A DNA stretch of 32,000 nucleotides from Desulfocapsa sulfexigens DSM 10523 (GTDB lineage: Bacteria; Desulfobacterota; Desulfobulbia; Desulfobulbales; Desulfocapsaceae). Shown here one piece after another: positions 1,318 through 31,401 of this stretch. Numbering within the stretch: the first letter of the stretch is position 1; every line of letters begins with the position of its first letter. The stretch is taken from contig NC_020304.1 of assembly GCF_000341395.1 (NCBI RefSeq), positions 630,001 to 662,000 of the forward strand. The letters run 5' to 3'. The position numbers and the translations under genes were made by a program. Below the pieces are notes generated by a model. It was not told the DNA's origin. It did not search any database and was given only the letters and a program-made list of their open reading frames with translations.

Positions 1318-1343
1318 AACTTATTTATCCTTTCCTTCAGAAT

Positions 1344-10848: not shown

Positions 10849-10850
10849 AC

Positions 10851-13646: not shown

Positions 13647-13791
13647 CTCTTTTTGTCGGTAACGTGGATTTTACCACTATGTGTCGAATCGCCATTTTCA
13701 TTATTTCATCCAAGCCGCTCCAGTATTCACAACAGAGAATAGTCTCTTTCTACGCGACGAACTGTATGAATCTCAGTATACAATAAAAACC

Positions 13792-14697
13792 ATGAACAAA
13801 TTTATCATTGCAGGAATAGGTGAACTTCTTTGGGATGTTTTAGAGGAGTCCGAGGAACTGGGTGGCGCACCTGTCAATTTTTCTTATCATGCAAATAGCT
13901 TGGGTGCAAAGGGCTACGCCATCTCGACCGTGGGGGATGACAGGCGTGGAAAAGCAGCCTTGGCAGTACTGGAAAAACGAAAGATGTCGACAAGGTACAT
14001 TACCGTTCGTAAAGGAGCTGTTACCGGATATGTGCTTGCCAATGTGGATGACAAAGGTGTCGCATCGTATTCTTTTCCTGATGACGTGGCCTGGGATCAC
14101 CTAACGTTGGCTGAACCGACCCTGTCCCTGGCAAAAGAGGTGGATGCCATCTGTTTCGGCAGTCTTGGACAACGTTCCCCCAAGGCGCGCCTGGCAATTG
14201 TTTCATTTTTACAGGCTACCCGACCTGATACCCTTAGAATTTTTGACATCAATCTGAGACAGCATTTCTACACCACTGAAATAATACAGAATTCTCTAAA
14301 ACTAGCGAATGTTCTAAAATTAAACAACGAAGAACTCGAGGTGCTTGGAGTCATAAACGACATCAAAGGTGATGAACGTTCTCTCCTGAAAAAACTGGTA
14401 GAGAAATATAACCTGCAGTTAGCGGTCCTCACCCGCGGTGGGAAGGGGAGCCTTTTAGTATCCCCTGCTGAAATATCCAGTCATCCTGGGTGCCCCACCA
14501 ATATCGTGGACACCATAGGTGCCGGCGACTCCTTCACTGCTGCAACTGCTCTTGGCTTATTAAGAGGATACCCCCTGTCAACGATCAACGATCACGCAAA
14601 CAGAGTTGCAGCATTTGTCTGTTCCCAAAAAGGGGCTATGCCGTTGTTACCAGTGGACCTGCGGGAAAACATATCCAAGACTGTACAATTAAGTTGA
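13792..14697 (+). CDS. Fructokinase / PfkB-family sugar kinase
   Basis: I trimmed the track ORF (GTG at 13681) to the ATG at 13792, giving MNKFIIAGIGELLWDVL. The PfkB signatures GGAPVNF and TIGAGDSFTAA (catalytic Asp) are present. The position after sps-spp-ams fits a fructokinase role. Confidence 0.8.
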   Translation: MNKFIIAGIGELLWDVLEESEELGGAPVNFSYHANSLGAKGYAISTVGDDRRGKAALAVLEKRKMSTRYITVRKGAVTGYVLANVDDKGVASYSFPDDVAWDHLTLAEPTLSLAKEVDAICFGSLGQRSPKARLAIVSFLQATRPDTLRIFDINLRQHFYTTEIIQNSLKLANVLKLNNEELEVLGVINDIKGDERSLLKKLVEKYNLQLAVLTRGGKGSLLVSPAEISSHPGCPTNIVDTIGAGDSFTAATALGLLRGYPLSTINDHANRVAAFVCSQKGAMPLLPVDLRENISKTVQLS

Positions 14698-16486: not shown

Positions 16487-18481
16487 ATGCTCTCTCTTTT
16501 TAAATCTATTCGCGGTAACGTCTTTGCTTACCTGGTTCTCCTGGTCTCAATATATTCCTTTTCCAATTATTTCATTATCAACCTGATTGTTTCACCAAGT
16601 CATATAGCGGTGGAACGTCAATTGGCCCAAGAGGAGATGGAGCGTTTTACCGAAGCTCTACTGCGAGAAGGAGAAGCACTGGGAGTTCTCGCCCATGACT
16701 GGTCGGCATGGGATGACACCTACGAGTTTGTGCAAAGCAGATATCAGGAATATATCACCTCAAATCTTCCCAACACCACCTTCACAAATGGAGGGCTGAA
16801 TCTCCTCCATTTCTTTCGCCCCGATGGCTCTCTTGTGTGGAGCAAACTTCTCGACCTTGAAACTGAAGAAGAAATATCACTCACCGAATTCCCTTCAACC
16901 GGACTACCAGGCGATCATCCTTTATTGCACCATCCTCGCCCAGACAGTGCCATCAATGGATTCGTCAAAACAGAACTCGGCCCGATGCTTGTTTCCTCTC
17001 ACCCCATCATCACCAGCGAAAATACCGGGCCAATTGCAGGAACACTGATCTTTGGCCGCCTCCTCACGGAACGGCTGATGACAAAACTCAGGAAACAAAC
17101 CAAGGTTCGATGTCGCCTCATCAACCTCAGTGATCCCAATGAACTGGCAACTCTCCCTATTAATATCTCATCACTTGGGCCGGACACTCCTTATGGCTAT
17201 CATATCACCGCAAACAAAATAATTATTTTCAGTACATTTTCTGATTATCAGGGTACCCCAGAATGGCTCCTGGAAGTACACGCCGATCGTCTGATCACTT
17301 CGCAGACCAGTGAACTAATGCGCTTTGTCGTGTTTTCTAACATCGGTATCGGCCTTGTCATCATCATCCTGTTCCTTCTCCTCTACCGTTACCAGCAGAG
17401 GCTTGCAACTTCCACATTTCGAGATGTAATCAACCAGTTTTTCCAAGATAAAACTCAAGGGAGGCAAAAAAAACCGATCCTCGATACTTTTAGCACTGAC
17501 GAATTTTCCGAACTCGGACAGGACCTGCGTTTAATGATCGCCAGTTTTGAACAAACAGACAAAGACCAGAAAAACATCATCAACAGACATAGCATCTCGC
17601 TGCGACAACTGAATAACAAACTGGTTGACGAGATTAAGGAACGTCTGCAGATTGAAAAAGACCTCCATGCAATCCAAAAAAATCTTGAAAAACAGGTAAA
17701 ACAAAGAACCTTTGAACTCCTGGAAACAAATAGTGTCCTGCAGAGGGAGATTGAAAGAAGGAAGGGGAAAGAGAAGGAACTGATAAAACATCGAAAGCGC
17801 CTTCGTTCCCTTTCATCGGAACTCATGGAGATGGAAGACAGGGAGCGACGTCAACTCGCAACTGACCTTCATGACCAGATAGGCCAGTCCCTCTCTGCTG
17901 TCAAAATGTACGCGGATGCTCTTATTGCATCTGCATCGCATAAAAGCAGCAAAGAAAAACTTGAACTGATCGCAGATATTGTCGCTGAAACAATTCAGGA
18001 TGTCCGCACCCTCACCTTCGAATTAAGCCCACCCATTTTATATGAGATCGGTCTCCATGCTGCCCTTGACTGGCTTGCAGAAGAATTCCTCCAGAAATAT
18101 GGTCTTATAATCACCTCCACCTGCGATGAATGTCCGAAATGTACAACTCCTGCCTTTCTGGCCCTCATTTTTCGGACAATTCGGGAATTGCTGACAAATG
18201 TTGTCAGACACGCCAATGCAGAGAAAGCTGAGGTCGAAGTGCGATGTACAGGTAAGGGGGTACGGATTACCGTAAAGGATGATGGTTGCGGTATGGTAAA
18301 AGAACAGCTAAATAACGAAGACTCCCCGAACACTGGCTTTGGCCTTTTCAGTATCCGGGAAAGGATAAACAATATCGGCGGTACGGTGGAAATTAATTCC
18401 ACAAAAGATGTCGGAACAGAAATAATTCTCACAATTCCAATCAAAGAGGCCTGCGCTGAATCCGGCAGGACAGAGCAATGA
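16487..18481 (+). CDS. Sensor histidine kinase: periplasmic CHASE4-like domain, TM helix, coiled coil, HisKA_3 and HATPase_c
   Basis: 664 aa. The N-terminal TM is followed by LAHDWSAWDDTYEFV, which is CHASE4-like. A second TM (VVFSNIGIGLVIIILFLLLY) and a K/E-rich coiled coil follow. The H-box is DLHDQIGQSLSAVK (NarX/DegS-type HisKA_3), the N-box is ELLTNVVRHANA and the G-box is DDGCGM...GFGLFSIRER. Confidence 0.9.
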   Translation: MLSLFKSIRGNVFAYLVLLVSIYSFSNYFIINLIVSPSHIAVERQLAQEEMERFTEALLREGEALGVLAHDWSAWDDTYEFVQSRYQEYITSNLPNTTFTNGGLNLLHFFRPDGSLVWSKLLDLETEEEISLTEFPSTGLPGDHPLLHHPRPDSAINGFVKTELGPMLVSSHPIITSENTGPIAGTLIFGRLLTERLMTKLRKQTKVRCRLINLSDPNELATLPINISSLGPDTPYGYHITANKIIIFSTFSDYQGTPEWLLEVHADRLITSQTSELMRFVVFSNIGIGLVIIILFLLLYRYQQRLATSTFRDVINQFFQDKTQGRQKKPILDTFSTDEFSELGQDLRLMIASFEQTDKDQKNIINRHSISLRQLNNKLVDEIKERLQIEKDLHAIQKNLEKQVKQRTFELLETNSVLQREIERRKGKEKELIKHRKRLRSLSSELMEMEDRERRQLATDLHDQIGQSLSAVKMYADALIASASHKSSKEKLELIADIVAETIQDVRTLTFELSPPILYEIGLHAALDWLAEEFLQKYGLIITSTCDECPKCTTPAFLALIFRTIRELLTNVVRHANAEKAEVEVRCTGKGVRITVKDDGCGMVKEQLNNEDSPNTGFGLFSIRERINNIGGTVEINSTKDVGTEIILTIPIKEACAESGRTEQ

Positions 18482-19119
18482 CAATAAAAATCATTGTGGT
18501 CGACGACCACAAAATAGTCCGAGACGGACTCTGTTCACTTATTGAAGGACTTTCCGGATACACTATAGTAGGCAGAGCAGAAAATGGAAGACAGGCCATC
18601 GAGGTAGCACGCCGGGAAAAACCCGATATCGTCATTATGGATGTGAGCATGCCCGAGATGAACGGCATCGATGCAACAAGTTCTATCATGGAGGAAAGAC
18701 CTTCCTGTAAAATCATTGTCCTCTCCATGCACTCTGACAAACGCTTTATTACCGGTGCTCTCCAGGCCGGAGCTTCTGGATTTCTTCTTAAGGAATGTGC
18801 ATTCCAGGAACTCAACCAGGCACTGGATGCCGTCCGCAGCGGACAAACCTACCTTAGTCCTAAAATTGCTGGTACTGTTGTCCACGATTACCGAAGGCGA
18901 CTGCTCTCTGAAGATAAAGAGAAAGCCCTCACCACAAAAGAACGTGAAGTACTGCAGCTCATAGCTGAAGGACGATCAACCAAAGAAATAGCCGACCGTC
19001 TCTTTGTCAGTATCAAGGCTATTGAAGGAAGACGAAGACGGCTCATGGAAAAACTGCAGATCACGACAATGGCAGGTCTTGTCAAATATGCCATTCGTGA
19101 AGGGCTCACTGAACTCTAA
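18478..19119 (+). CDS. Response regulator, NarL/FixJ (LuxR-type HTH) family
   Basis: 213 aa. The REC domain has VVDDH and DIVIMDVSMPEMNG. The C-terminal LuxR HTH reads LTTKEREVLQLIAEGRSTKEIADRLFVSIKAIEGRRRRLMEKL. The start overlaps the kinase stop by 4 nt (ATGA). Confidence 0.95.
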   Translation: MTIKIIVVDDHKIVRDGLCSLIEGLSGYTIVGRAENGRQAIEVARREKPDIVIMDVSMPEMNGIDATSSIMEERPSCKIIVLSMHSDKRFITGALQAGASGFLLKECAFQELNQALDAVRSGQTYLSPKIAGTVVHDYRRRLLSEDKEKALTTKEREVLQLIAEGRSTKEIADRLFVSIKAIEGRRRRLMEKLQITTMAGLVKYAIREGLTEL

Positions 19120-19427: not shown

Positions 19428-20348
19428 ATGCAGACAATATTTTTCATCCTCTTATTTTTCCTTACAGGGAACACAGCAGTGCTGGCAGAGTCTCTACAGC
19501 CAAAGGAACCTCTCTTTATAAATCCGAATGTGACGACTGAAACCAATATTCATTTCGATAGTAATTACTGTACCGAATGTCACCTGCAGAAACCATCCAA
19601 GGGGGACTCCGTACAGCTGAGATTCGACAACTATACCACGGCCTGCAGATGTCATGGGTACACTCCTGACACATACACCCATCCTGTGGACATAGTGCTT
19701 TCTGCAGAAAAAAAGGCCACTATTCCGGCAGAATTCCCTCTTACAAATGACAAAATCACCTGCGACACCTGCCATAACATGGCACTGCAATGTGAACCAA
19801 AGTACGAGTTGCGACTTCACAACAAGGCATTTTTACGAACAAACTCCTCCCTGGGCCGAACATTTCTCTGCTTTCAGTGCCATGAGGAAGAGCAATACAA
19901 AATGTTTGACCCCCACAAACAACTGGATGCGTCAGGGGCTATAAATGAAGAATCGTGCCTTTACTGTCATGCAAGCAAACCAGATGAACAGCAGGCAACT
20001 TTCAATTCACAGAACAACGGAGAAGACAGCATCCATCTTGTCGGCAACCTGGAGATACTTTGTCTGCGTTGCCACAACGACAAGGCCGGCAACCACCCCC
20101 TGAATAGAAATCATCTGGTCAAACCATCAGAAAAAATCATTTCACGAATGCACTGGTCGGAAAGAAATCTCTGGATCGTGCTGCCCCTGAACAACGAGGG
20201 AAAAATCACCTGTATCACCTGCCACAACCCACACGAACACGGAGTCATTCCCACAGACAAGGCAGCATCTGCCGGAGCAAGCGAAAAAGGCAGACTGAGA
20301 AAGGCATGGGGAGGAGGAAGTATTTGTGTGGTATGTCACAACATCTAA
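19428..20348 (+). CDS. Periplasmic multihaem c-type cytochrome with 7 CXXCH motifs and one degenerate ACRCH site
   Basis: 306 aa with a signal peptide ending AVLA-ES. The CXXCH motifs are CTECH, CDTCH, CFQCH, CLYCH, CLRCH, CITCH and CVVCH. ACRCH lies at nt 19641-19655. The HPVDI and NHPL distal-ligand-like motifs are shared with the 18-haem paralogue. Confidence 0.9.
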   Translation: MQTIFFILLFFLTGNTAVLAESLQPKEPLFINPNVTTETNIHFDSNYCTECHLQKPSKGDSVQLRFDNYTTACRCHGYTPDTYTHPVDIVLSAEKKATIPAEFPLTNDKITCDTCHNMALQCEPKYELRLHNKAFLRTNSSLGRTFLCFQCHEEEQYKMFDPHKQLDASGAINEESCLYCHASKPDEQQATFNSQNNGEDSIHLVGNLEILCLRCHNDKAGNHPLNRNHLVKPSEKIISRMHWSERNLWIVLPLNNEGKITCITCHNPHEHGVIPTDKAASAGASEKGRLRKAWGGGSICVVCHNI

Positions 20349-20361
20349 CAAAGGAGAGAAG

Positions 20362-21426
20362 ATGAGATTGAAGTCACGTTCCCGGCCACTTTGGCCCCTT
20401 AGTATCCTCACACTGCTTGTTATTTACTTCCTGCCCGCAGGCGCGCAGGGATCAGATGTCGGTAACTGCCTGCTCTGTCATAAATACCCGGGACTAAGCA
20501 GGGTTGATGAAAATGCAGAAATGCGGCTTCTCTATGTAAATGAAGAAATTTTCAACCAAAGTGTCCACGCAAAGGTAAAATGTGAGGGATGCCACACTGA
20601 TATCACCAAGATCCCCCATGAACCGGTCAAACCTGTGGACTGTCTGGTACTCTGTCATATCATTGAACCGGCAGAGGAGCAGAAGTTTTCTCACAAGAGT
20701 GTTGAAAAATTCCTGGCCGACAGTGTTCACGGCAAGATGGACGAACATGGCAAAGAAAAGCCTTTCAGTGAAGACATGCCGACCTGTAAGGACTGCCATG
20801 ATAATCCGATGTTCAGACCCCTTGCATTTGTCAAAAAGGTGAGACCCGGTATTGCTGAAGATGCCCTGGGACGCTGCCGAGTCTGTCACAAAAAAGAAGA
20901 ATTCATCTACAGATTTTACAATCACGTCACCACCAGGCTGCACAAGAGCAGAAGTCCGCTCAATATTGCAGAGTCCTGTGCCAGATGCCACGATGACCCG
21001 GAACTGGTGGCCCGACACAACCTCTCCACCATGGCCAGAGGTTCCTATGGGCAGACTTTTCACGGCAAGGCGGCCAACCTCCTGGACGAATCGGTTCCAG
21101 ACTGCCTGGACTGCCACGTACCCAAGGGACAATCCGTACACCAGATGCACGGCAATGATGACATTCGTGCCACCACCCATCCGGAGAACAGAGGACAAAT
21201 TTGTGGATCCGTGGACTGTCACCCAGGTGCCTCCCAACAGTTTGCAAATTATCAGGTCCATGCGGAATTTAACAAGGAACAGAGCCCGGTGATCTACTGG
21301 TTCACCACCTTCTTCATCATTCTCACCGGTGCTACCCTGCTTCCTTTGATGGGAATACTGTTTCTTGATCTGCTTCGCCGCCTGTTTCCCAATGCATCTT
21401 TTAGACGGAGGAAAGAGAAACCATGA
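20362..21426 (+). CDS. Membrane-anchored multihaem c-type cytochrome (6 CXXCH plus CX3CH and CX4CH, C-terminal TM helix). CbcA-like by architecture.
   Basis: I trimmed the track ORF to the ATG at 20362, which follows AAGGAGAG. The signal peptide is MRLKSRSRPLWPLSILTLLVIYFLPAGAQG. The motifs are CLLCH, CEGCH, CKDCH, CRVCH, CARCH and CLDCH, plus CLVLCH (20641-20658) and CGSVDCH (21202-21222). The C-terminal hydrophobic helix is VIYWFTTFFIILTGATLLPLMGILFLDLL, followed by RRLF...RRRKEK. Confidence 0.9.
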   Translation: MRLKSRSRPLWPLSILTLLVIYFLPAGAQGSDVGNCLLCHKYPGLSRVDENAEMRLLYVNEEIFNQSVHAKVKCEGCHTDITKIPHEPVKPVDCLVLCHIIEPAEEQKFSHKSVEKFLADSVHGKMDEHGKEKPFSEDMPTCKDCHDNPMFRPLAFVKKVRPGIAEDALGRCRVCHKKEEFIYRFYNHVTTRLHKSRSPLNIAESCARCHDDPELVARHNLSTMARGSYGQTFHGKAANLLDESVPDCLDCHVPKGQSVHQMHGNDDIRATTHPENRGQICGSVDCHPGASQQFANYQVHAEFNKEQSPVIYWFTTFFIILTGATLLPLMGILFLDLLRRLFPNASFRRRKEKP

Positions 21427-22325
21427 AAAAATATCCAGCAATAAAGTTCAAGGACGGAAAAAAATACTTTTTCCGATTTGATCTGGACACAAGAATCCAG
21501 CATATCATCCTGGCGGCAACAGTCATTATACTGGTTCTGACAGGGATGCCTCTCAAGTTCAGTGATAGTAGCTGGGCTCCTTATCTCTACTCTTTTTTCG
21601 GTGGAAGCAAGATGGCTCCGGTAATACACAAATGGACCGGTGCCATCATGCTTCTCCTCTTTGTTTACCATGTTGTGCGAGTAGTAGGCGGCATCATAAC
21701 GAATCATATCATGCCCCTTAAAAGAGAAGGGAAAATGAGTATAGGCAGGGTCACCATGGTACTGGTCAGACTCCCCATGATTCCAAACCTGAAAGATCTG
21801 AAAGATATCATAGGACTGATGAAATACCTGCTCTATTTCACCAATGAGCACCCGCATGGCGATGAATGGACCTGGAAGGAAAAGTTTGATTACTGGGCAC
21901 CATTCTGGGGTATGTTTGTCATCGGTATCACCGGCCTCATCATCTGGAACAAGGTACTGGCAACCCAGGTCATACCAGGTGAATTTATCAACCTCTGCCT
22001 GATAGCTCACAGTGACGAGGCATTACTGGCGGCACTCTTTCTCTTTATCTGGCACTGGTATAACGTCCATTTTTCCACTTCTGTCTTCCCGATGGGTACA
22101 GTCTTTCTCACCGGTTATCTTCCTGAAGAGCTGATGGTTGAAGAACACTACGAGCATTACGTAAGAGTGATGACCAGGGAAGGATTGGAATCTGAGATCA
22201 AACCGCCCCACGGTGGCGGCAATAATCCGACAATCTGCGGGGAACCACAGGATGTCACCTCGGATACTCCACCAACCACCGCACCAGCCAATGATCCCAT
22301 GCAGCAGGGAGGAGTCAACTCATGA
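21423..22325 (+). CDS. Integral-membrane b-type cytochrome (FdnI/HydC/PhsC-like cytochrome b561 fold). Candidate quinol-interacting subunit.
   Basis: 300 aa with at least four TM helices: IQHIILAATVIILVLTGMPL, HKWTGAIMLLLFVYHVV, YWAPFWGMFVIGITGLIIW and CLIAHSDEALLAALFLFIWHWYNVHF. Histidines sit in TM1, TM2 and TM4 (two in TM4), as expected for two b haems. There are ATGA overlaps with both neighbouring genes. Confidence 0.75.
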   Translation: MKKYPAIKFKDGKKYFFRFDLDTRIQHIILAATVIILVLTGMPLKFSDSSWAPYLYSFFGGSKMAPVIHKWTGAIMLLLFVYHVVRVVGGIITNHIMPLKREGKMSIGRVTMVLVRLPMIPNLKDLKDIIGLMKYLLYFTNEHPHGDEWTWKEKFDYWAPFWGMFVIGITGLIIWNKVLATQVIPGEFINLCLIAHSDEALLAALFLFIWHWYNVHFSTSVFPMGTVFLTGYLPEELMVEEHYEHYVRVMTREGLESEIKPPHGGGNNPTICGEPQDVTSDTPPTTAPANDPMQQGGVNS

Positions 22326-23242
22326 AATGCTTTTTTACCAAGCTCTATGTTCTTGCTTTTATGGGACTGGTCGCCTTTTTCGGTGTGCTCATCTGGAATT
22401 TGACATTTGCCCATCTTATCCATGAATACCATGCAAGACAAGGAGATGTAACAATTACTCCCAGCGGAGAGAATGACAAAAAAGATGTCGGGAATCAAAC
22501 ATTTGACAAGATGATTCTTGAAAGTGAGGATCGGGTCAAACACTATCTCGGCTACCGGGTACTGGAAGAGCAGAGAATAGAAGGACATTTTCACCATATC
22601 GGCTTCGATGTCGGACCCGACAACAGATCCTACTGCAGATCCTGCCATGGCGACATGCCTCACGACTCAGTCAAAGATATTCGGGCATTTTTGAATATGC
22701 ATGCCTTTTTTGTGGCCTGCCAGACCTGCCATGTCAAGCTGACTGATGATGAAAGAACAAACGTCTACAAATGGTATGACCGAAAAACCGGAGAAATTGT
22801 TGAAAGCCCGGTCAATGGAGCTCCACCGGGGACCTACAATGCAAAAATTGTCCCCTTCATTCGTGAAGACGGCAAACTTGTCCGCATCGACAGCGAGGAA
22901 AAAATCCAGTTCGCCACTGACTACAAGACAAATGAAAAGGCGTTGAGCGAAGGCCAGAAATCCAAGGCAAAGAAGATTATCCACCAGATTATCAGCAAGC
23001 TGCCTGTAAGCTGTGAAGAGTGCCACACCAAGAACAATCCTACTCTTCCCCTTGCCGATCTTGGCTACCCCAAGGCCCGGATCGATTCCATCACCAGTAC
23101 AGAGGTGGTGGGAATGATAAAGAACTATACGGAGTTCCATATGCCAAAGATGTTAAACCCAGGCGAAGTATCGCCTGCTGCGCCACAACAGACCGAACTG
23201 CAGCCGCAACAGATGGCGGAACCACAACCAACACAGCATTGA
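22322..23242 (+). CDS. N-terminally membrane-anchored trihaem c-type cytochrome
   Basis: 306 aa. The N-terminal TM is LYVLAFMGLVAFFGVLIWNLTF, with no obvious cleavage site. It has three CXXCH motifs (CRSCH, CQTCH, CEECH) and a Pro/Gln-rich C-terminal tail, PAAPQQTELQPQQMAEPQPTQH. Confidence 0.85.
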   Translation: MKCFFTKLYVLAFMGLVAFFGVLIWNLTFAHLIHEYHARQGDVTITPSGENDKKDVGNQTFDKMILESEDRVKHYLGYRVLEEQRIEGHFHHIGFDVGPDNRSYCRSCHGDMPHDSVKDIRAFLNMHAFFVACQTCHVKLTDDERTNVYKWYDRKTGEIVESPVNGAPPGTYNAKIVPFIREDGKLVRIDSEEKIQFATDYKTNEKALSEGQKSKAKKIIHQIISKLPVSCEECHTKNNPTLPLADLGYPKARIDSITSTEVVGMIKNYTEFHMPKMLNPGEVSPAAPQQTELQPQQMAEPQPTQH

Positions 23243-23254
23243 GAATGCGACCAA

Positions 23255-24217
23255 GTGAACAGATATACCTCACCTGAGTGGTATAAAAGAAGAAGGAGAA
23301 TAGTCACCATTTCTATTCTCCTTTTGCTTACGGCCTGGACATCCGCCGCCCATGCACTGGAGCTGACCATGGCAACACACCTCTTTGATATAGAGGAGGA
23401 ATTCAACCAGCCAAGTGATGTAGCCGTTGCCAGGAACGGTACCATCTATGTGGTTGATGGGGTGAATGGCAAAATCAAGGCATTTTCACCTTCCGGAAAA
23501 CCACTCTTCACTATCGGTCGACCAGGAACCGATCCCGGCGAATTTGCCTTTCCCCTTGGTATTGGACTGGACGAATCTGGCAGAGTCTATGTTGCCGACT
23601 CCAGAAATAGCCGGATCCAGATATTTTCTGCCACAGGCGATTTCATCTCTGAAATTCCGGTTCCAGCCCTGAACGGAGAAAAATCCGACCCAACCGATGT
23701 GGTCGCGGACAGTTCCGGAAAATGGTGTTTTGTGGCAGACAACAATAATCATCGGATTCTCCAATTCGATATTGCCACAAAAAAGCTCATCAACAGCTAT
23801 GGAAAACCCGGGGCTGAAAAATGGGAATTCCGCTATCCCTTTCTCATGCACCTCCATCGGGATAAAGACCTGTACATTGTTGATGTCATCAATACCAGAG
23901 TACAGGTTCTGAATACAGAGGGGAAGTTCGTCACCTTTGTCGGGGGCTGGGGTGTTGAAAAGGGCCATTTTTTCAGACCAAAAGGGATTACTGTGGATAA
24001 AAATGGACTCTCCTATGTCAGTGACAGCTATATGGGAGTAGTTCAACTCTTCAATATTACCGGCACCTTTCATTCAGTCCTTGGTGACCCGACAACGGGT
24101 AAGGTGAAGAAGTTCGTAACACCTGTTGGGCTCTTTATTGACGATGCCATGCACCTCTATGTTGTGGAGATGCTTCCAGGCCGGATCAGTGTTTTCAGCC
24201 TGGAAAATATGCCATGA
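23255..24217 (+). CDS. NHL-repeat beta-propeller protein, secreted/periplasmic (NHL-1)
   Basis: 320 aa from a GTG start with no clear RBS, so the start is uncertain. The signal-like N-terminus is KRRRRIVTISILLLLTAWTSAAHA. NHL blades recur: PSDVAVARNGTIYVVDGVNGKIKAF, PLGIGLDESGRVYVADSRNSRIQIF, PTDVVADSSGKWCFVADNNNHRILQF, LYIVDVINTRVQVL, PKGITVDKNGLSYVSDSYMGVVQLF and PVGLFIDDAMHLYVVEMLPGRISVF. Confidence 0.85.
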   Translation: MNRYTSPEWYKRRRRIVTISILLLLTAWTSAAHALELTMATHLFDIEEEFNQPSDVAVARNGTIYVVDGVNGKIKAFSPSGKPLFTIGRPGTDPGEFAFPLGIGLDESGRVYVADSRNSRIQIFSATGDFISEIPVPALNGEKSDPTDVVADSSGKWCFVADNNNHRILQFDIATKKLINSYGKPGAEKWEFRYPFLMHLHRDKDLYIVDVINTRVQVLNTEGKFVTFVGGWGVEKGHFFRPKGITVDKNGLSYVSDSYMGVVQLFNITGTFHSVLGDPTTGKVKKFVTPVGLFIDDAMHLYVVEMLPGRISVFSLENMP

Positions 24218-26436
24218 TCAGATCCCGTGCCTGCATCCTGATCCTGCTTTTCAGCAGCATGCTTTTTTACTCTCTCCCATGCCTTGCCAATCAGGCACCT
24301 CGCAACCCGAATTCGGCCAAGGAATGTGCGATCTGTCACTATCGATGGATAGATACTTTTTTTATTGATGGCAGGGGCACTGACCTTGTGCCCTATCAGG
24401 AGACTAAGGTGGTCGCAGAGCCCGAAATCTGTTTTTCCTGCCATGACGGCAGTGTGGCAGACTCAAGGGGAAAGGTGTACAACGACCATCGCCACCCCAT
24501 CAACAAACCACCACCACCAGGGATGGAAATCCCAGCCATCTTTCCCCTGGATGAGCATGGAAACATGCAGTGCTTTACCTGCCACACTGCCCATGGAGTG
24601 TCCAGTGAAATGGGGATTGAACGGGCAGTTTTTGTCCGCACATCCAACGATAATTCTTCCATGTGCATGATGTGTCACAAGGGCAAGGATGGTGGGCCTG
24701 CCATGGGCAACCATCCCATTGGCACAACAGAACGACCAATACCTGACAACCTTCTCAATCTCGGGAGTATCGAAGGGTCTGTCACGAATCAGATCATCTG
24801 CCAGACCTGCCACAATGTTCATGGCTCACCCTTTGACAATTTTCTCGTTGAAAACAACAGAGATTCAGGCCAGCTCTGTCTGGACTGCCACCAGGAAAAG
24901 GGCGGTCTGCTAAACAGCGGGCATGATTTACGGCGCACGGCAGCGGAGGCCAAGAACAGCAAGGGACAGCCCCCGGTACAGTCAGGGATATGCGGTGCCT
25001 GTCATCTGGTGCATGGAGCAGAAAAGACAGTACTCTGGGCCCGACCACTTCCTGCTAAGAGTAAAAACAGAACCCAGGATCTGTGCACTAGCTGTCACAG
25101 CAAAACAGGGCTGGCCTCTGAAAAACTCATCAAGGGATATTCTCATCCCGTTAACATTTCTCTTCGGGACAAGGGGATGCGACCTGACCTGCCTGCCTTT
25201 GATCTCACTGGCCGGCGCGTTCAGCAAGAGGCTAAGGACGCACTGCTCACCTGCCCCACCTGCCACGATCCACACCAGGCAGGAACTGCCAGGCAGGCCA
25301 CAATGACCCCGCCCCGTTCAAGTTTTCTTCGGGTAAAGGATGGAAAAGCTGAAAGCCTGTGTAAGCAGTGCCACAGCAAACAGGCATCTGTTGTGGGAAG
25401 CGATCATGACCTGCGAAAGACAGGTGCCACAACAAAAAATACTCAGGGGCAACTGCCTGGCGAGTCAGGACCATGCGGCGTCTGTCATCTTGTTCACGGA
25501 GCACAGACAAAAAACTTATGGGCTCGCAAGGTCTCGAGCAAAAGTGCCTATCCGGCACAGGATCTCTGTCTGACCTGTCACAACAGCAAGGGTGTCGCCA
25601 ATACAAAAGTCATCGCTGACCACTCCCATCCCGTTGACATCAATCCTGAAAAACGAAACATCAGTACTACTCTGCCGCTTTACGACAGTCATGGAGAAAG
25701 AAAATCCAATGGCGTTATAGCCTGTCTGACCTGCCATAATCCACACCAATGGCATCCTAGAAAGCCGACCTCCCACGGAAACAATCATGTTGAGGGAAAC
25801 GCAAAAAACAGCTTTCTCCGTCTTGCCGCCGCACCAGAACCTGCACTGTGCAGCAATTGTCACCCTGAAAAAGCGTATGTGGAAAAGAGTGACCACGACC
25901 TCAACATCACAGCACCCACTGCAACAAATACCATGGGGCAGATCCCGGAAGAATCCGGGGTCTGCGGTGTCTGTCACATCATCCATAATGGAAAAAACAC
26001 GGTACGACTCTGGGCTCGTAACTATGGAGCAGGTAAAGGCATTATGGATAGAATGTGCAACAGTTGTCATACAGATGGGGGATCCGGCAGTAACAAGGTA
26101 CCTGTGGTTTCCACCCATCCGGAAAAACAACTCATCGCTAATCCGGGAAGAAATATCAAAGGAAAGGCAAATTATTTTCCACTTTTTGACGACGAAACGG
26201 CATCACCTATTACCATCGGCGATATTTCCTGTGCCTCATGCCATGATGTGCACCAATGGGATCCCAAAAAGAAACAAAAGGGGAATGGGGAAAATCCTGA
26301 GGGGAAAGCTACCAATAGTTTTTTACGCATGCAGACCTACAACATGATCTGCAAAGACTGTCATGGACTTGATTCCCTGTACCGATTCAAATATTACCAT
26401 GACAGTAAGAAAAGAACACCCATTTCCACCCCATAA
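24214..26436 (+). CDS. Large periplasmic or extracellular multihaem c-type cytochrome with 18 CXXCH motifs
   Basis: 740 aa with the signal peptide MIRSRACILILLFSSMLFYSLPCLA. The 18 motifs start at residues 38, 73, 120, 151, 196, 222, 260, 291, 347, 383, 421, 452, 504, 546, 584, 615, 673 and 713. The start overlaps the NHL-1 stop (ATGA). Confidence 0.95.
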   Translation: MIRSRACILILLFSSMLFYSLPCLANQAPRNPNSAKECAICHYRWIDTFFIDGRGTDLVPYQETKVVAEPEICFSCHDGSVADSRGKVYNDHRHPINKPPPPGMEIPAIFPLDEHGNMQCFTCHTAHGVSSEMGIERAVFVRTSNDNSSMCMMCHKGKDGGPAMGNHPIGTTERPIPDNLLNLGSIEGSVTNQIICQTCHNVHGSPFDNFLVENNRDSGQLCLDCHQEKGGLLNSGHDLRRTAAEAKNSKGQPPVQSGICGACHLVHGAEKTVLWARPLPAKSKNRTQDLCTSCHSKTGLASEKLIKGYSHPVNISLRDKGMRPDLPAFDLTGRRVQQEAKDALLTCPTCHDPHQAGTARQATMTPPRSSFLRVKDGKAESLCKQCHSKQASVVGSDHDLRKTGATTKNTQGQLPGESGPCGVCHLVHGAQTKNLWARKVSSKSAYPAQDLCLTCHNSKGVANTKVIADHSHPVDINPEKRNISTTLPLYDSHGERKSNGVIACLTCHNPHQWHPRKPTSHGNNHVEGNAKNSFLRLAAAPEPALCSNCHPEKAYVEKSDHDLNITAPTATNTMGQIPEESGVCGVCHIIHNGKNTVRLWARNYGAGKGIMDRMCNSCHTDGGSGSNKVPVVSTHPEKQLIANPGRNIKGKANYFPLFDDETASPITIGDISCASCHDVHQWDPKKKQKGNGENPEGKATNSFLRMQTYNMICKDCHGLDSLYRFKYYHDSKKRTPISTP
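24877..26349 (+). repeat. Three tandem intragenic repeats, each about 160 aa and four haems, inside the 18-haem cytochrome
   Basis: The units are aa 222-382, 383-545 and 546-712 (nt 24877-25359, 25360-25848, 25849-26349). Each follows the pattern C..CH-(x)-S.HDL-(x)-G(Q)(x)P.(E)SG.CG.CH..H(x)...LWAR-(x)-C..CH-(x)-(S/T)HP-(x)-C..CH(D/N)(P/V)HQ-(x)-NSFLR (SSFLR in unit 1). The repeats are conserved at protein level and diverged at DNA level. Confidence 0.85.
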
Positions 26437-26600
26437 AAAAGATAGGAATTGTTCACAAATAAAATCTTACAAGCTGTAATCCATTGCCAAGAAAAGGAAT
26501 AATAAGTACCACACCAGCCCTAACCGACAAACACCGAAACCATCGCAATGTCAGGCAGGACGGGCAATCCAGTCAATTTAAAGAGGGATTTGGAACGTAA

Positions 26601-26626
26601 AAAAGAGGGGAACCCCTCTTTTTTCT
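26601..26626 (+). terminator. Rho-independent terminator ending the first cytochrome transcription unit
   Basis: The sequence AAAAGAGGGG-AA-CCCCTCTTTTTT has a GC-rich stem (GAGGGG/CCCCTC) followed by a T-run. It lies about 165 nt after the 18-haem stop codon. An A-tract upstream makes it look symmetric, so it may act in both directions. Confidence 0.8.
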
Positions 26627-26743: not shown

Positions 26744-27376
26744 ATGAAAAGACTAGTAATTGGCGTTCTGGCTTTAATTGGCAGCACCGGGATATGCTCA
26801 ACAGCATTTGGAGTAATAACAGGATCGGATCATGACTTCAGTGGGTCAAACTGGAGTAGTGGACAAATTTGTCTGCCCTGTCACGCACCTCATAACGGAA
26901 CAGTTATCGCTGATGCTCCCCTATGGAATCATGATGTCTCAGAGGCCAGCTATACCCTGTACTCCAGTGCCACCCTCGATGCCGATGATCTTTCACAGCC
27001 CGCCGGCGTCTCAAAGCTCTGCCTTTCCTGCCATGACGGAACCGTTGCTATCGATGCCTTTACTGGCCATGACGGTACTATTTTTATAGGAACAATCGGA
27101 ACAGGCAGTGGAGATCTTGGCTCAGCCCTGAATAATGACCATCCCGTATCTTTCACTTATGACAGTGCCCTTGCTACCGCAGACGGTGGTCTTTGGGATC
27201 CAAGCTCAAAAAGTTCAGGAATAACAGAGGGTGGTACAATTGATAGCGACATGCTTTTTGCCGGACGGATGGAATGTGCATCCTGTCATGATGTTCATAA
27301 TAAATATGAGAACACGAGTCTTCTCTTAATAGATAACGATGGCTCTAACCTCTGCCTCACCTGCCACAACAAGTAA
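26744..27376 (+). CDS. Small secreted tetrahaem c-type cytochrome
   Basis: 210 aa with the signal peptide MKRLVIGVLALIGSTGICSTAFG. It has 4 CXXCH motifs (CLPCH, CLSCH, CASCH, CLTCH) and six further His residues (SDHDF, APHNG, LWNHD, TGHDG, NDHPV, DVHNK). The spacers are Gly/Ser/Thr/Asp-rich and look loop-like. GAGAGGA lies 6-7 nt upstream of the ATG. Confidence 0.9.
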   Translation: MKRLVIGVLALIGSTGICSTAFGVITGSDHDFSGSNWSSGQICLPCHAPHNGTVIADAPLWNHDVSEASYTLYSSATLDADDLSQPAGVSKLCLSCHDGTVAIDAFTGHDGTIFIGTIGTGSGDLGSALNNDHPVSFTYDSALATADGGLWDPSSKSSGITEGGTIDSDMLFAGRMECASCHDVHNKYENTSLLLIDNDGSNLCLTCHNK

Positions 27377-27468
27377 CAGGACAATCCGCCATAGGCTGTC
27401 TTCCGTCTGCCCATGCACGTCACGTGTGTGGGTGGACTTTGTTGTTTTCACGGTACCACTTAAAAACC

Positions 27469-28548
27469 ATGCAAAAACCATATCGTTTCTCAGACACACA
27501 GCTGTTATTTCCCCTCCTCTGTCTGCTACTCCTGAGCAGTTGTGCCAGGCCGGTAGAAGAAGCAGCACTCATTTTCTACCCACCACCACCAGAACGCCCG
27601 AGACTTCAGTTTCTCACAGCCATCTCCTCGGAAACAGACCTGGCAGTCAAAAGAGATGCCTTTGACAGCTTTCTCTTTGGTCCCGACCTGTCCTTTTCCT
27701 CCATCGGTCGCCCCTACGACATAGCCTCAGACAGGGGAAGCATCTACCTTATTGACCGTCAGTCCAACAAGATACTCACCATTGATCTGGTGAACAAGGA
27801 CTTCACCGAACTACGAGCCACCGGACGGGGGGCACTCCGTTCCCCGTCAGGTATCTGGGTCACCTCGGATGGCTTCAAGTACATTGCTGACATAAAACGC
27901 CAGCAGATTGTCACCTTCAACAGCAGTAATGAGTTCATCCGTGCCTACGGTAATAAAGAGCTGTTTAATAAACCGGTTGATGTTGCTGTTTATAACAACA
28001 ACATCTATGTCTGCGACATGGTCAAAAGTCAGATCATTGTCCTCGACAGAGATTCGGGAGAAGTCGTTATGACCGTTGGGGAGAGTGGATCCGAAGAGGG
28101 GCAGCTGCATAAGCCGACACATGTAACAGTGGACAAACATGGAAATGTTTTTGTCAATGACGCCTTTAATTTTAGAGTCCAGCAATTTGACAGTTCTGGA
28201 GTATTTGTGAAAACTTTTGGCTTCCACGGAGACCGCATGGGAGGAATGGCCAGAAGCAAAGGGCTGGATGTAGATCAGGAAGGAAATTTGTATGTGGCGG
28301 ATGCGGCCTTTGAATATGTACAGATTTTCAACAAAGACGGTCAACTGCTCCTTTTCTTCGGTGGCCCTGGAAATGCTCCTGGAAATATGTACCTTCCGGC
28401 CGGGGTCCATATTGATTATGAGAACATCCAATTCTTCAATACATTTGCAGACCCGAATTTCAAACTGAAATACCTCCTCTATGTGTGCAATATGAGTGGT
28501 TCAAATAAGGTCAATGTCTATGGATATGGAGACTGGAGCGGTGAATAA
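27469..28548 (+). CDS. NHL-repeat beta-propeller lipoprotein (NHL-2)
   Basis: I trimmed the track ORF (GTG at 27424) to the ATG at 27469, giving MQKPYRFSDTQLLFPLLCLLLLSSC with the lipobox LSSC. A PPPPERP linker follows. NHL blades include PYDIASDRGSIYLIDRQSNKILTI, PSGIWVTSDGFKYIADIKRQQIVTF, PVDVAVYNNNIYVCDMVKSQIIVL, PTHVTVDKHGNVFVNDAFNFRVQQF and GLDVDQEGNLYVADAAFEYVQIF. Confidence 0.85.
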   Translation: MQKPYRFSDTQLLFPLLCLLLLSSCARPVEEAALIFYPPPPERPRLQFLTAISSETDLAVKRDAFDSFLFGPDLSFSSIGRPYDIASDRGSIYLIDRQSNKILTIDLVNKDFTELRATGRGALRSPSGIWVTSDGFKYIADIKRQQIVTFNSSNEFIRAYGNKELFNKPVDVAVYNNNIYVCDMVKSQIIVLDRDSGEVVMTVGESGSEEGQLHKPTHVTVDKHGNVFVNDAFNFRVQQFDSSGVFVKTFGFHGDRMGGMARSKGLDVDQEGNLYVADAAFEYVQIFNKDGQLLLFFGGPGNAPGNMYLPAGVHIDYENIQFFNTFADPNFKLKYLLYVCNMSGSNKVNVYGYGDWSGE

Positions 28549-28598: not shown

Positions 28599-29294
28599 AT
28601 GCACAAAATTTCCATCCACATAGTAATGATGTTTTTTCTAACAGCTTCCCTCAGCGGATGTGAAGCGAAAAAACAGCATGAAGTGCTTACCTTTTTCTTC
28701 ACCGGGGTTCCCCCCTTGGAGGAAACAGCTGCTGTAACAAGTGATCAGGAACTTCAGGATGTACGGGAGACAACGCCGGGGCCAAAAACTGTACAGGTTC
28801 AAACCCTCTATTCCCACCCGGTATGGGCCGCCGGCGTCTGCGACCCATGTCATGGAAGTACGGGAACATTCAGCACTCCCGGGGTCCAGAAACAACCTCA
28901 AACAGTCTTCAAAACAGGTGGCGGTATGCCTGGTGAACTCACCCTGCCGAAAACGAAACTCTGCATACAATGCCACAGAGACAAAACACCTTTACGGGCA
29001 CTTACAGAACGACTCTGGCTACATAACACAACGGCAAAAGGGGATTGCATGGCATGTCACGATCCCCATCAGAGCAAGAATAAAAACACCTTGCGAAAGC
29101 CACCGGTAAAAATCTGTCTTTCATGCCATGAAAATGGGACTTTTATGGCAACACCAGCCCACCAGACAGGAGAAGACTGCCTTTCCTGCCATACTCCACA
29201 CATGGGCCTCAATAAAAATTTACTCAAAAACGAATATCAGGAGCAGAAAACGCCAGCGCTCCAAATCCCAGAGACAATGGTACAGGGTCGGTAA
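28599..29294 (+). CDS. Pentahaem c-type cytochrome lipoprotein
   Basis: 231 aa with a canonical lipobox (LTASLSGC). It has 5 CXXCH motifs: CDPCH, CIQCH, CMACH, CLSCH and CLSCH. Confidence 0.9.
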   Translation: MHKISIHIVMMFFLTASLSGCEAKKQHEVLTFFFTGVPPLEETAAVTSDQELQDVRETTPGPKTVQVQTLYSHPVWAAGVCDPCHGSTGTFSTPGVQKQPQTVFKTGGGMPGELTLPKTKLCIQCHRDKTPLRALTERLWLHNTTAKGDCMACHDPHQSKNKNTLRKPPVKICLSCHENGTFMATPAHQTGEDCLSCHTPHMGLNKNLLKNEYQEQKTPALQIPETMVQGR

Positions 29295-29334: not shown

Positions 29335-31401
29335 ATGCACTCTTCCTATAACCTCTTCCCAGTGACCCTGTTTGTCCTGCTCCCGCTGTTTTTTCTTCTC
29401 ATGGGGCCAGTACAAATCCAGGCTGCTGAAGAAACGGAAACGGGTGAAGTTCAGGCTCCGACAACCCCTCCTGTCTCATCACCCATTCCCAGGCCACGAA
29501 TGACGGCAGTGCCCAATGGTCTTCTTGGACAGAACTATTTTATTAAACGGCCGGGTATGGGAGCAGGACTCACCTATGAATACAAAGATGAGTCGCGGAC
29601 AACCAGTGGAACCACTGTCAAAGACAGCTATCACAGATTTAAAGAACGGGTGAGACTGCAAACGGATGGATGGCTATATCATCCAGCGCTTATGCAATAT
29701 TCCCTGATGATTGAACCGGAGTGGATCCAGTCAAAAGAAGTTAACACTTCAGGAGAAACTGGCAGAGTCAACTCCTTTTCACCAGACTATGCAATGACCG
29801 CGACCTTCCTTCAGCAAAAGCCCTACACCTTTAACTTTTTTGCCAGCCGACGAGAATCTCCGGTGTGGGCAGCATTTGCCGGTGACACTGAAACTCTTGT
29901 CGACACATACGGCACAAATATACGACTCAAATATAAAATTTTACCAACCGTATTTGGGTACTCTCACGTCAAAACTGATCAGCAGGGTTACTATAGTTCA
30001 GAAAACATACGCGACAATTTCCATTTCACCTCGCGGCATCAAAATAACAGAAGCAGCACATCTTTCAGTTCCACCTACAGTGACGACAGGAGAAGCACCG
30101 AAGACAGTGATACTAAAATCACTACGTTCAACAACAGTCTCACGAACAACTATCAAATAACCAGTGACAATACAATCAAACTCAACTCATTCCTGACGTA
30201 CAGAACCCAGGATAGTGATGTGTTTGATACAGCGAACCTCCGACTGCGAGAACAGCTGAACTGGCGGCATCGTGCAAATCTGCGATCAAACTATTCATTT
30301 ACCCACACCCTGCAGGAAACCGACAACACACAGTCCGAAAGAACAGCACTCGATGCCCGCTTAACACATCTTTTATATGAAAACCTCACCACAAACGTCG
30401 GAAGCAAAGGCAGTCTCTATGATTACTCAGGGGGACGGGAGAATGCGTTCAATACTTTTCTTAATTTCACATACACCCGTCCCATCTCCTGGGGTACCCT
30501 GAATCTAAACAGCGGTTGGGACTACCTCTATACAGACCGCAGCGGATTCACCAGTTCAATTGCTCAGGTAACCAATGAACCACACACCCTGAGCCCTGCC
30601 ACCGAAACCTACCTGGCCAACTATGGCGTACGAACTGAGTCCATCGTTGTAACCAATACTCCCGGAACAATCATCTATATTGAAAACATAGACTACAGCG
30701 TCGACACCATCGGTGATTACACCAGAATAAATTTTCTCTCCTTTGGCTCCATAGCAGCCGGACAATCTGTCATGGTCAGCTACAGCTACACCCGAGATGC
30801 AGAGTATGATGACGGTATAGCCACCGAGAACTATGGTATGAACATACATTTGTTTAATAGCTTGGATTTTTCCTACAATTACCTGCACACCAAACAACAC
30901 ATTCTTTCTGGCCTGGAACCAAAGAACAAAATTGATGATACCATCCACAGATTCAAAATTCGTCATTACACAAACTGGGCTGATACCACCTTCCACTATG
31001 AAGACAACGACCGTGTTTCCAACCGTCCCTTTACCAGATGGGAACTCCAGGAGACATTAAGCTACAGGCCTGCATGGCAAGTACACTTTTCACTCAAGGG
31101 ATATTTTGGCCAAACCTCCTATACAGATGATAATGAAACAAAAGACTTTTATGGAGGAGTCACTACCTTTGACTGGCTCCTCAACCGCTGGTGCAGGTTT
31201 CGGTTGGAAGGGTATTATGACAATATCAATGGGGATGTGGAACAGACAGAAAATATCGGTGTCAAGGCAGGACTGGAATTCCGCTACCGTATCTGGACAG
31301 CACGACTAACCTATGAACTCACTGACCAGAACAATATAATAACGGATTATGAGCGAACGAAACAACTCCTTCGTTTTGAAATTATCCGCATCATGTGGTG
31401 A
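29335..31401 (+). CDS. Large outer-membrane beta-barrel protein. Candidate porin partner of the adjacent lipoprotein cytochrome.
   Basis: 688 aa. The signal peptide ends IQA-AEE and is followed by a Pro-rich linker (APTTPPVSSPIPRP). The rest is Y/T/N/S/R-rich with alternating hydrophobic and polar stretches throughout. There is only one Cys. The C-terminus, LLRFEIIRIMW, ends in an aromatic residue as in typical OMP C-terminal signatures. Confidence 0.75.
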   Translation: MHSSYNLFPVTLFVLLPLFFLLMGPVQIQAAEETETGEVQAPTTPPVSSPIPRPRMTAVPNGLLGQNYFIKRPGMGAGLTYEYKDESRTTSGTTVKDSYHRFKERVRLQTDGWLYHPALMQYSLMIEPEWIQSKEVNTSGETGRVNSFSPDYAMTATFLQQKPYTFNFFASRRESPVWAAFAGDTETLVDTYGTNIRLKYKILPTVFGYSHVKTDQQGYYSSENIRDNFHFTSRHQNNRSSTSFSSTYSDDRRSTEDSDTKITTFNNSLTNNYQITSDNTIKLNSFLTYRTQDSDVFDTANLRLREQLNWRHRANLRSNYSFTHTLQETDNTQSERTALDARLTHLLYENLTTNVGSKGSLYDYSGGRENAFNTFLNFTYTRPISWGTLNLNSGWDYLYTDRSGFTSSIAQVTNEPHTLSPATETYLANYGVRTESIVVTNTPGTIIYIENIDYSVDTIGDYTRINFLSFGSIAAGQSVMVSYSYTRDAEYDDGIATENYGMNIHLFNSLDFSYNYLHTKQHILSGLEPKNKIDDTIHRFKIRHYTNWADTTFHYEDNDRVSNRPFTRWELQETLSYRPAWQVHFSLKGYFGQTSYTDDNETKDFYGGVTTFDWLLNRWCRFRLEGYYDNINGDVEQTENIGVKAGLEFRYRIWTARLTYELTDQNNIITDYERTKQLLRFEIIRIMW

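Follow-up and report, generated by a model that had tools for sequence, protein, structure and literature searches.

Small diffusing cytochromes carry electrons through the periplasm in Geobacter and Shewanella, and both the crossing of the periplasm (~20 nm) and the charging of nanowires are open questions outside these two genera. HmcA (PDB 2e84) of Desulfovibrio is a large 16-haem periplasmic cytochrome of concatenated c3-like tetrahaem domains, and a b-type cytochrome is part of the membrane redox complex encoded alongside it. Polymers of c7 modules of the GSU1996 type (GSU1996, GSU0592 and GSU2210 of Geobacter) are thought to have arisen by module duplication, and long predicted wire cytochromes are already known from Desulfuromonadia (PMC11492766). 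PCC3 of Fe(II) oxidisers is a repeat-containing periplasmic cytochrome with 21, 24 or 27 haems, proposed to span the periplasm and encoded with a putative dihaem-b inner-membrane protein of about 300 amino acids (aa) (PMC5566968, PMC10734462). As a concept, modular multihaem wires are known from GSU1996, PCC3 and HmcA, and the 'grafting and pruning' of haem modules has been described in the literature. Here we report on gene F, encoding an 18-haem c-type cytochrome in a stretch of 32,000 nucleotides (nt) of the Desulfocapsa sulfexigens DSM 10523 genome (contig NC_020304.1, positions 630,001 to 662,000; hereafter the window, to which all coordinates refer), and on the cassette of genes B to F to which it belongs. 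Three features look new, namely a 4-haem unit of ~160 aa between a fixed head and tail, the range of 2 to about 10 copies in which it naturally occurs, and a conserved cassette of an NHL-repeat protein and a bc-type inner-membrane module, joined here to an OmcE nanowire locus. A literature search that covered few subscription journals turned up no paper on either the B-C-D-E-F cassette or the 4-haem unit, so that this absence is no proof.

Gene F is the longest open reading frame over its coordinates, and its translation holds exactly the 18 CXXCH motifs expected from an earlier sequence-only reading of this DNA (residues 38, 73, 120, 151, 196, 222, 260, 291, 347, 383, 421, 452, 504, 546, 584, 615, 673 and 713). 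The motif scan of the 740 aa found no CXXCK, CX3-4CH or CX15CH motif and no known catalytic signature. Thirty-six of the 38 cysteines sit in CXXCH motifs, and the remaining two lie within the signal peptide. The N-terminus carries a Sec signal whose Ala25 is invariant across relatives; no lipobox was found in the family, the relatives having no Cys at the Ala25 site. As predicted from these features, the product is a Sec-exported soluble c-type cytochrome made of a 5-haem head, three 4-haem units and one closing haem:

Gene F, 24214..26436, plus strand: 740-aa, 18-haem c-type cytochrome (Pfam Paired_CXXCH_1 E 2e-39, Cytochrome_C7 E 3e-27).
Head (aa 26-221), 24289..24876, plus strand: 5 haems (CXXCH 38, 73, 120, 151 and 196), residues 120-221 being a degenerate partial unit.
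Repeat unit 1 (aa 222-382), 24877..25359, plus strand: 4 CXXCH and 4 conserved distal His.
Repeat unit 2 (aa 383-545), 25360..25848, plus strand: 4 CXXCH and 4 conserved distal His.
Repeat unit 3 (aa 546-712), 25849..26349, plus strand: 4 CXXCH and 4 conserved distal His.
Tail, 26350..26436, plus strand: closing CKDCH (aa 713) and a conserved ...LYRFKYYH (His729).

Compared with the doubled-CXXCH families, as had been recommended, gene F scored above the curated cutoffs of both PF09699 (133 bits over 4 stretches, cutoff 20.6) and TIGR01905 (94.8 bits, cutoff 25.2). The best PF09699 stretch (aa 196-230) straddles a block boundary and takes in the haems on either side of it. We defined the F family by a head of the form ..SAKEC..CH..W.D.., n full matches to a hidden Markov model (HMM) of the unit, and a tail of the form C..CH...(F/Y)(R/K).(K/T)Y(F/Y)H; gene F has this head and tail and 3 full-length unit matches (i-E 4e-53 to 1e-61).

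Gene F resembles the GSU1996 type in being a single chain of tandem multihaem modules that would form a long periplasmic haem chain, and Pfam Cytochrome_C7 matches part of a unit in each region (best stretch aa 217-296). However, the GSU1996 type carries 3 haems per about 75-80 aa, whereas the unit of F carries 4 haems and four distal His in 161-167 aa, and F has an NHL propeller and genes B-C-D as partners. GSU1996 structures were absent from the PDB matches of F, both at E <= 0.01 with the single sequence and at E <= 1 with a profile of 79 sequences. Given the wrong unit size and haem count and the missing GSU1996 match, membership of the c7 polymers was rejected. Like F, HmcA is a many-haem chain whose gene goes together with those of membrane redox proteins, a b-type cytochrome among them, but no sequence relationship was detectable in either PDB search, and HmcA is unlike F in its fixed 16 haems, its compactness and the lack of an NHL partner. 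The MtrA/DmsE decahaem family (TIGR03508) was rejected as well, as gene F reached 84.1 bits against a cutoff of 192.2 and has 18 haems instead of 10; for the GSU2203 decahaem family, F also remained under the cutoff.

The central claim of the sequence-only reading, that residues 222-382, 383-545 and 546-712 repeat one order of motifs, was borne out. In the unit alignment each listed motif stands in register in all three units, in the order S.HDL, SG.CG.CH..H, LWAR, (S/T)HP, C..CH(D/N)(P/V)HQ and (N/S)SFLR. The homology of the units is upheld by three kinds of repeat statistics. BLASTP gave 44% identity between units 1 and 2 (E 3e-42), 40% between units 2 and 3 (E 6e-36) and 37% between units 1 and 3 (E 4e-26). 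As haem density inflates similarity, local alignments were also compared with 300 shuffles in which every Cys and His was kept fixed, and the full units reached z = 10.2-15.9. Furthermore, hhalign between family profiles of the units gave E values of 3e-72, 4e-56 and 9e-48. At the DNA level only blastn patches of 28-87 nt at 66-82% identity are left, and because similarity is reduced to such short patches the units do not represent a recent tandem duplication. Together with the positional orthology of the units across phyla described below, these patches agree with the earlier suggestion of an old duplication with diverged DNA.

Two further claims held in part. A partial unit had been placed in the N-terminal 221 aa; at the profile level residues 120-221 of the head do match the units (hhalign probability 98.5%, E about 1e-15), whereas residues 27-119 are weakly supported (probability 83-87%), and in single-sequence statistics the head was indistinct from shuffles (z 0.6-2.6, shuffle test). 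The unit was also said to appear in the 7-haem protein encoded at 19428 (gene A). There, positions 32-138 of the unit HMM (388 units) match aa 170-278 (i-E 4e-7), which is a 3-haem sub-part and not a whole unit. The idea that each 4-haem unit goes back to an old doubling of a 2-haem half was tested and found no support, with z < 0 in all three units and weak hhalign scores except for the two halves of unit 1 (U1a-U1b).

Given that modularity predicts variable copy number at constant boundaries, relatives were surveyed for both, and the counts were found to differ while the boundaries are conserved. A first search of 5.8 billion proteins gave 1226 matches at E <= 1e-10, with lengths clustering near 740, 830, 980 and 1170-1230 aa, and haem classes were read with the unit HMM on the 120 best of these 1226. 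The 18-haem class consists of a 5-haem head, 3 units and 1 closing haem; the 20-, 24- and 28-haem classes have a 7-haem head followed by 3, 4 and 5 units, respectively, and 1 closing haem. Unit matches in the 120 best always span model position 1 to about 155-164. In relatives with 20, 24, 28 and 48 haems the head contains an extra 2-haem insert, and the closing-haem tail is common to all family members. A second search queried 1.84 billion cluster representatives (clusters at 50% identity) with a profile built from the three units of the window protein and gave 760 clusters at E <= 1e-3 and 244 at E <= 1e-30, with a 1333-aa/31-haem and a 2047-aa/48-haem protein among the 760. Across relatives, units occur in 2, 3, 4, 5, 6 and about 10 copies, proteins with the same head and tail total 14, 18, 20, 22, 24, 28, 31 or 48 CXXCH, and each unit runs from its opening CXXCH to the ...SFLR... 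linker. The 14-haem member (615 aa) has two units. The 48-haem protein (P0121, L077/L078; 2047 aa, 48 CXXCH) comes from a hydrothermal-vent metagenome-assembled genome (MAG; GCA_011375175.1); its head, ..NSAKECAICHYNW.., is the same as that of the window protein, and its tail, ..NSFLR..C.DCH..LFRYKYFH, matches too. Because copy number varies at fixed boundaries between the same head and tail, the gene F family is, on this comparative evidence, genuinely modular. As a separate observation, CXXCH spacing within P0121 runs [51,25] and then in blocks of 38/30/55/42, which suggests duplication of a multi-unit block; its upstream context is lost at the contig end.

Unit 3 of the window protein shares 54-59% identity with the final unit (3 or 4) of proteins from Desulfolithobacter, Nitrospirota and Desulfobacterales, but just 34-38% with units 1 and 2 of the same chain. 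In the 24-haem class the added unit was copied from the middle one (about 52%), and in 28-haem proteins the units most resemble their own neighbours, which argues for independent expansions there. Judged by these identities, the units are positionally orthologous across phyla and further expansions are lineage-specific. A search seeded with the 14-haem protein recovered a large clade of proteins of about 1000-1060 aa with 24 haems and 4 units, from Gallionellaceae, Sulfuricella, Thiobacillus and other Beta- and Gammaproteobacteria, including Fe(II) and sulfur oxidisers. The family as a whole amounts to 326 matched stretches among 185,579 species genomes, and its hosts are sulfate and sulfur reducers, Nitrospirota, and Fe/S-oxidising Proteobacteria. 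No named, characterised homologue came out of the search of 5.8 billion proteins or of the one seeded with the 14-haem protein, whose matches bore no label more specific than 'cytochrome c3 family protein', 'predicted CXXCH cytochrome' or 'hypothetical'. The sequence-only reading had called the protein extendable, and unit number does vary among relatives; length is nevertheless mostly constant, since 88 of the 97 copies in the 75 best-matching loci of species-representative genomes carry 18 or 20 haems, which would fit a constraint on length.

Candidate haem ligands were read from alignments of 16 and of 79 family members (whole protein) and of 25 units. Besides the 4 CXXCH, H16, H46, H90 and H129 are invariant in all 25 units. 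Over the whole protein, 34 His are invariant and H94 is conserved at >= 90%, which makes 17 candidate distal ligands beside the 18 proximal ones. Bis-His ligation is thus plausible for all twelve haems of the units and for five of the remaining six. Given the four extra invariant His per unit, nearly every haem would be of the kind that serves pure electron transfer. A conserved distal His is missing for one of the five haems in the head. Met104, Met118, Met133 and Met150 of the head are conserved at >= 90%, and one of them could provide His/Met ligation and with it a higher-potential entry or exit haem.

PDB sequence and profile searches found no solved structure of any relative, and returned motif-level matches only, to OmcE, MtrA, MccA and NrfA. 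The match of gene F to OmcE (E 2.8e-4 with the single sequence, 2e-7 with the profile) is confined to one paired-CXXCH stretch, and the MccA and NrfA matches in the profile search (E 5e-4 or worse) to short CXXCH-bearing stretches. An AlphaFold2 (AF2) model from the 79-sequence alignment, built with no haems, had a predicted local distance difference test score (pLDDT) of 71, with the units at 80-90 and head residues 20-142 mostly below 50; a model of a single unit (25-sequence alignment, pLDDT 54) was unusable. Foldseek of the full AF2 model against PDB gave 0 matches, an apo-model of a multihaem protein being a poor query.

Upstream of gene F lie the other members of its cluster, and a hairpin follows it:

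Gene A, 19428..20348, plus strand: 7-haem secreted cytochrome, first of the operon.
Gene B, 20326..21426, plus strand: multihaem cytochrome with 6 CXXCH, one CX3CH and one CX4CH, and a C-terminal hydrophobic helix.
Gene C, 21423..22325, plus strand: integral-membrane b-type cytochrome, Ni_hydr_CYTB/FdnI-like.
Gene D, 22322..23242, plus strand: 3-haem cytochrome with an N-terminal hydrophobic anchor.
Gene E, 23255..24217, plus strand: secreted NHL-repeat beta-propeller, not a lipoprotein (NHL E 5e-22).
Hairpin after F, 26599..26624, plus strand: A-rich/GC/U-rich (-15.3 kcal/mol, z -2.1).

Gene C matches PF01292 (36 bits, cutoff 30.1) and FdnI (1kqf_C, E 1e-3), and is presumed from this likeness to hold the quinone site. 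Gene B may bind up to 8 haems, counting its non-canonical motifs CLVLCH (CX3CH, aa 106) and CGSVDCH (CX4CH, aa 293). The layout of C and B, a cytochrome b beside a multihaem c protein with a C-terminal hydrophobic helix, recalls the dihaem b and anchored multihaem c proteins of CbcBA/CbcL of Geobacter as an analogy of architecture only. CbcBA is a genetically shown quinone oxidoreductase that feeds extracellular electron transfer, and the C-terminal helix of CbcA, which the gene B helix resembles, has been proposed to donate a b-haem ligand (bioRxiv 10.1101/2021.04.15.440034). CbcBA differs in having no 18-haem protein, NHL propeller or third anchored cytochrome.

The gene order B-C-D-E-F recurs across the 75 loci of our survey, which cover six or more phyla. 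Hosts include Desulfobulbales, Desulfobacterales, Nitrospirota, Gammaproteobacteria, Verrucomicrobiia and Gallionellaceae, and the loci nearest to the window (69-79% identity) come from Desulfocapsa, Desulfocapsaceae, Desulfobulbaceae and Desulforhopalus MAGs. Of 88 F genes, 71 are immediately preceded by an NHL gene, and B, C, D and E all lie <= 4.8 kb away on the same strand for at least 38 of 62, a lower bound as B-C-D is divergent in some loci. As far as gene neighbourhood can tell, the NHL propeller is the constant partner of F and the inner-membrane bc-type module its usual one. Further, the cassette often stands alone with no porin nearby, which ties F to the inner-membrane module and not to the outer membrane. 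In Nitrospirota/Thermodesulfovibrionia (L019-L034, L038, L050, L057 and L058), two complete tandem paralogous B-C-D-E-F cassettes are usual, in which an 18-haem protein is encoded first and a 20-haem protein after it, and unrelated genes follow with no outer-membrane module adjacent. A 28-haem member (P0078) has the same cassette, adjoining pilin-like/GspH-like genes.

PCC3 and F are alike in being very haem-rich, repeat-containing and proposed to span the periplasm, and in having an inner-membrane b-type partner gene. They differ in that PCC3 grows in steps of 3 haems and its cluster has a porin and a huge extracellular multihaem cytochrome. The identification of F with PCC3 was rejected on gene context and the published description, since most F loci, the Gallionellaceae locus included, have no porin or giant cytochrome. 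For instance, the 24-haem protein of a Gallionellaceae MAG (P0286/L082) lies in B-C-D-F with a divergent NHL gene and neither porin nor extracellular cytochrome; this porin-less cassette is distinct from the PCC3 and Uet clusters of such organisms. The putative barrel near F in the window belongs to an OmcE-type module. This module begins shortly after the hairpin:

Gene G, 26744..27376, plus strand: 210-aa tetrahaem OmcE homologue of the nanowire subunit type.
Terminator after G, 27405-27437: strong, with a 15-bp stem.
Gene H, 27424-28548, plus strand: NHL lipoprotein (NHL Pfam match and LSSC lipobox).
Gene I, 28599-29294, plus strand: 5-haem lipoprotein (LSGC lipobox; best PDB match the MtrA chain of 6r2q).
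Gene J, 29335-31401, plus strand: 688-aa putative outer-membrane barrel (sequence character and C-terminal ...IIRIMW).
Gene K, 31405 onward, plus strand, cut at the window end (32000): NHL-like lipoprotein (LHGC lipobox; 27% identical to H).

Gene G has matches to the OmcE nanowire subunit 7tfs_A (full length, E 2.4e-24) and to 9yuq_N of the Desulfuromonas soudanensis OmcE bundle (E 3.5e-20), which makes it an OmcE-type nanowire candidate outside Desulfuromonadia, where such filaments were solved; the strong terminator behind it fits a highly expressed filament subunit. Gene J matched nothing in Pfam, NCBIfam or PDB. In the minimal omcE cluster as published, OmcE is accompanied by a large barrel, two multihaem cytochromes and two lipoproteins of the beta-propeller type (bioRxiv 10.1101/2025.10.22.684050). 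The gene content of G-K fits this set, with J as the putative barrel, and in relatives a second OmcE-like gene and one more cytochrome gene follow downstream; published clusters, however, are not described with an upstream B-C-D-E-F cassette. Genes B/C, C/D and E/F overlap by 4 nt, the E stop lying over the F start, and A/B overlap as well. The hairpin, 160 nt past gene F and bordered by A and U runs, was spotted by eye and then folded; a consensus promoter/terminator scan did not rise above shuffles, and its list lacked this hairpin. It is likely an intrinsic terminator that splits the A-F operon from the OmcE module. Given the gene overlaps, this hairpin and the strong terminator after G, A-F probably form one operon and G onward another.

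Our preferred reading, which we hold with moderate confidence, is that gene F encodes a periplasmic haem wire coupling an inner-membrane quinol oxidoreductase to outer-membrane or extracellular acceptors. B-C-D would exchange electrons with the menaquinone pool, and F, probably held by or docked through propeller E, would form one continuous haem chain of about 18-23 nm that carries electrons over most of the periplasm without diffusing shuttles. In this genome the chain would pass electrons to the 5-haem lipoprotein I, the barrel J, the NHL lipoproteins and the OmcE-type filament. The family lengthens and shortens by whole 4-haem units. As its members are found among reducers as well as Fe/S oxidisers, electrons may flow in different directions in different hosts. 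MtrA measures about 100 Å for 10 haems (PMC5566968), and a 27-haem wire has been predicted to reach 350 Å, with the periplasm averaging 170 Å (PMC11492766). The 18-23 nm given for F follows from the 1.0-1.3 nm per haem of these published wires, and is close to or above a 17-nm periplasm.

Several observations weigh against a periplasmic wire of this kind. An OmcE-like gene lies within 10 kb for just 18 of 77 F genes and a J-type barrel near 12 of 77, so that the link to the outer membrane appears lineage-specific and optional. A 14-haem member sits in a Crp-cytochrome-NHL-F cassette that has no cytochrome b. The AF2 model (pLDDT 71) is haem-free, with the head region under 50 and no Foldseek match. 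Versions with 28 to 48 haems, if extended, would overshoot the periplasm and fit a simple bridge poorly. Finally, Desulfovibrio ferrophilus IS5 encodes 12- and 14-haem cytochromes together with NHL propellers (DFE_448-451 and DFE_461-465) that are induced under electron-donor starvation, and its NHL-associated multihaem cytochromes were found in outer-membrane fractions (PMC5815863). The 14-haem member of the F family also lies in a cytochrome-NHL-F cassette, a likeness by description only, and no D. ferrophilus protein was among the matches listed for the search seeded with that member.

A bolder version of the preferred reading, possible but on balance doubtful, is that A-F and the OmcE module make up a hard-wired circuit from menaquinone to filament, in which F is a rigid, propeller-docked bridge that replaces shuttles and whose length changes in 4-haem steps. 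If so, these steps (about 4-5 nm each) would match the length of F to envelope geometry, F would stand in for the diffusing trihaem shuttles that Geobacter uses to charge nanowires, and Fe/S oxidisers, among them Gallionellaceae and Thiobacillus, would run the same cassette in the opposite direction. As the putative quinol module, haem wire, outer-membrane module and OmcE-type subunit lie within about 12 kb, a fixed wire and a shuttle can be tested directly against each other. The natural series of 14 to 48 haems with identical ends also offers a ready set for studies of length-dependent conduction and redox properties and for protein engineering.

The strongest rival, though a rather unlikely one, places F outside the cell or on its outer surface, exported, for example, via barrel J or a type II system and acting either as a conduit on the surface or as a base or adaptor for the OmcE filament. 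In the window, F directly precedes the OmcE-type nanowire and barrel module, and the 18 of 77 F genes with an OmcE-like neighbour fit such a role, as do members with 28-48 haems that are too long for the periplasm and the pilin-like/GspH-like genes beside P0078. The NHL-linked cytochromes of the D. ferrophilus outer-membrane fraction (PMC5815863) and the predicted extracellular location of long single-chain multihaem cytochromes of Desulfuromonadia (PMC11492766) point the same way. However, F has as its constant partners the inner-membrane bc-type module and an NHL protein that is not a lipoprotein, no porin lies near most cassettes, F has no lipobox, and a likely terminator separates it from the OmcE module.

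It is unlikely that F serves mainly as a periplasmic electron store, a capacitor that buffers the quinone pool under intermittent acceptors or donors. Such a function would suit the 18-48 low-spin-type haems per chain and the many genomes in which the cassette has no outer-membrane partner, and storage is one of two proposed roles of very haem-rich cytochromes (PMC11492766, PMC10734462). The modal size of 18-20 haems, strongly conserved across phyla, and the constancy of head and tail suggest instead two defined docking ends, and storage and conduction are not mutually exclusive. We regard as very improbable a catalytic reductase or oxidase of soluble sulfur, nitrogen or metal species with one open-site haem: 17 candidate distal His for 18 haems would leave such a site in the head, and MccA and NrfA appear among the weak profile matches, but these matches are short and poor, F carries no catalytic motif of the kinds scanned for, the head Met residues could supply the missing ligand, and units are gained and lost freely, unlike an enzyme core. 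That the repeats are mere coincidence of CXXCH and His spacing is effectively refuted by BLASTP, the shuffle test and hhalign, since, even though haem-rich proteins inflate scores and single-sequence tests of half-units and head were no better than shuffles, the full units lie 10-16 standard deviations above Cys/His-fixed shuffles, share 37-44% identity over about 160 aa and can be counted in hundreds of proteins.

Other genes of the window accompany this locus. A CHASE4 histidine kinase and a LuxR-type response regulator are encoded just before gene A:

CHASE4 histidine kinase and LuxR-type response regulator, 16487..19119, plus strand: kinase from 16487, regulator from 18478.

This pair lies directly upstream of the cluster in 13 Desulfocapsaceae/Desulforhopalus loci, and is likely, from its position, a dedicated regulator of the cytochrome operon. 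Further upstream, 8698-14697 (plus strand) encodes a fusion of sucrose-phosphate synthase and sucrose-phosphate phosphatase, a second sucrose-phosphate phosphatase, an amylosucrase-like alpha-amylase and a PfkB sugar kinase. By annotation these appear to form a sucrose synthesis and turnover cluster, unusual-looking for Desulfobulbales and possibly used in osmoprotection. An omptin-family outer-membrane protease (6551-7546, plus strand; Pfam E 6e-55) has an OmpA-like gene (4664) and a GNA1162-like lipoprotein gene (3858) as envelope-related neighbours, and LolA-like and MacB/FtsX ATP-binding cassette (ABC) genes lie near it on the minus strand (571-3276).

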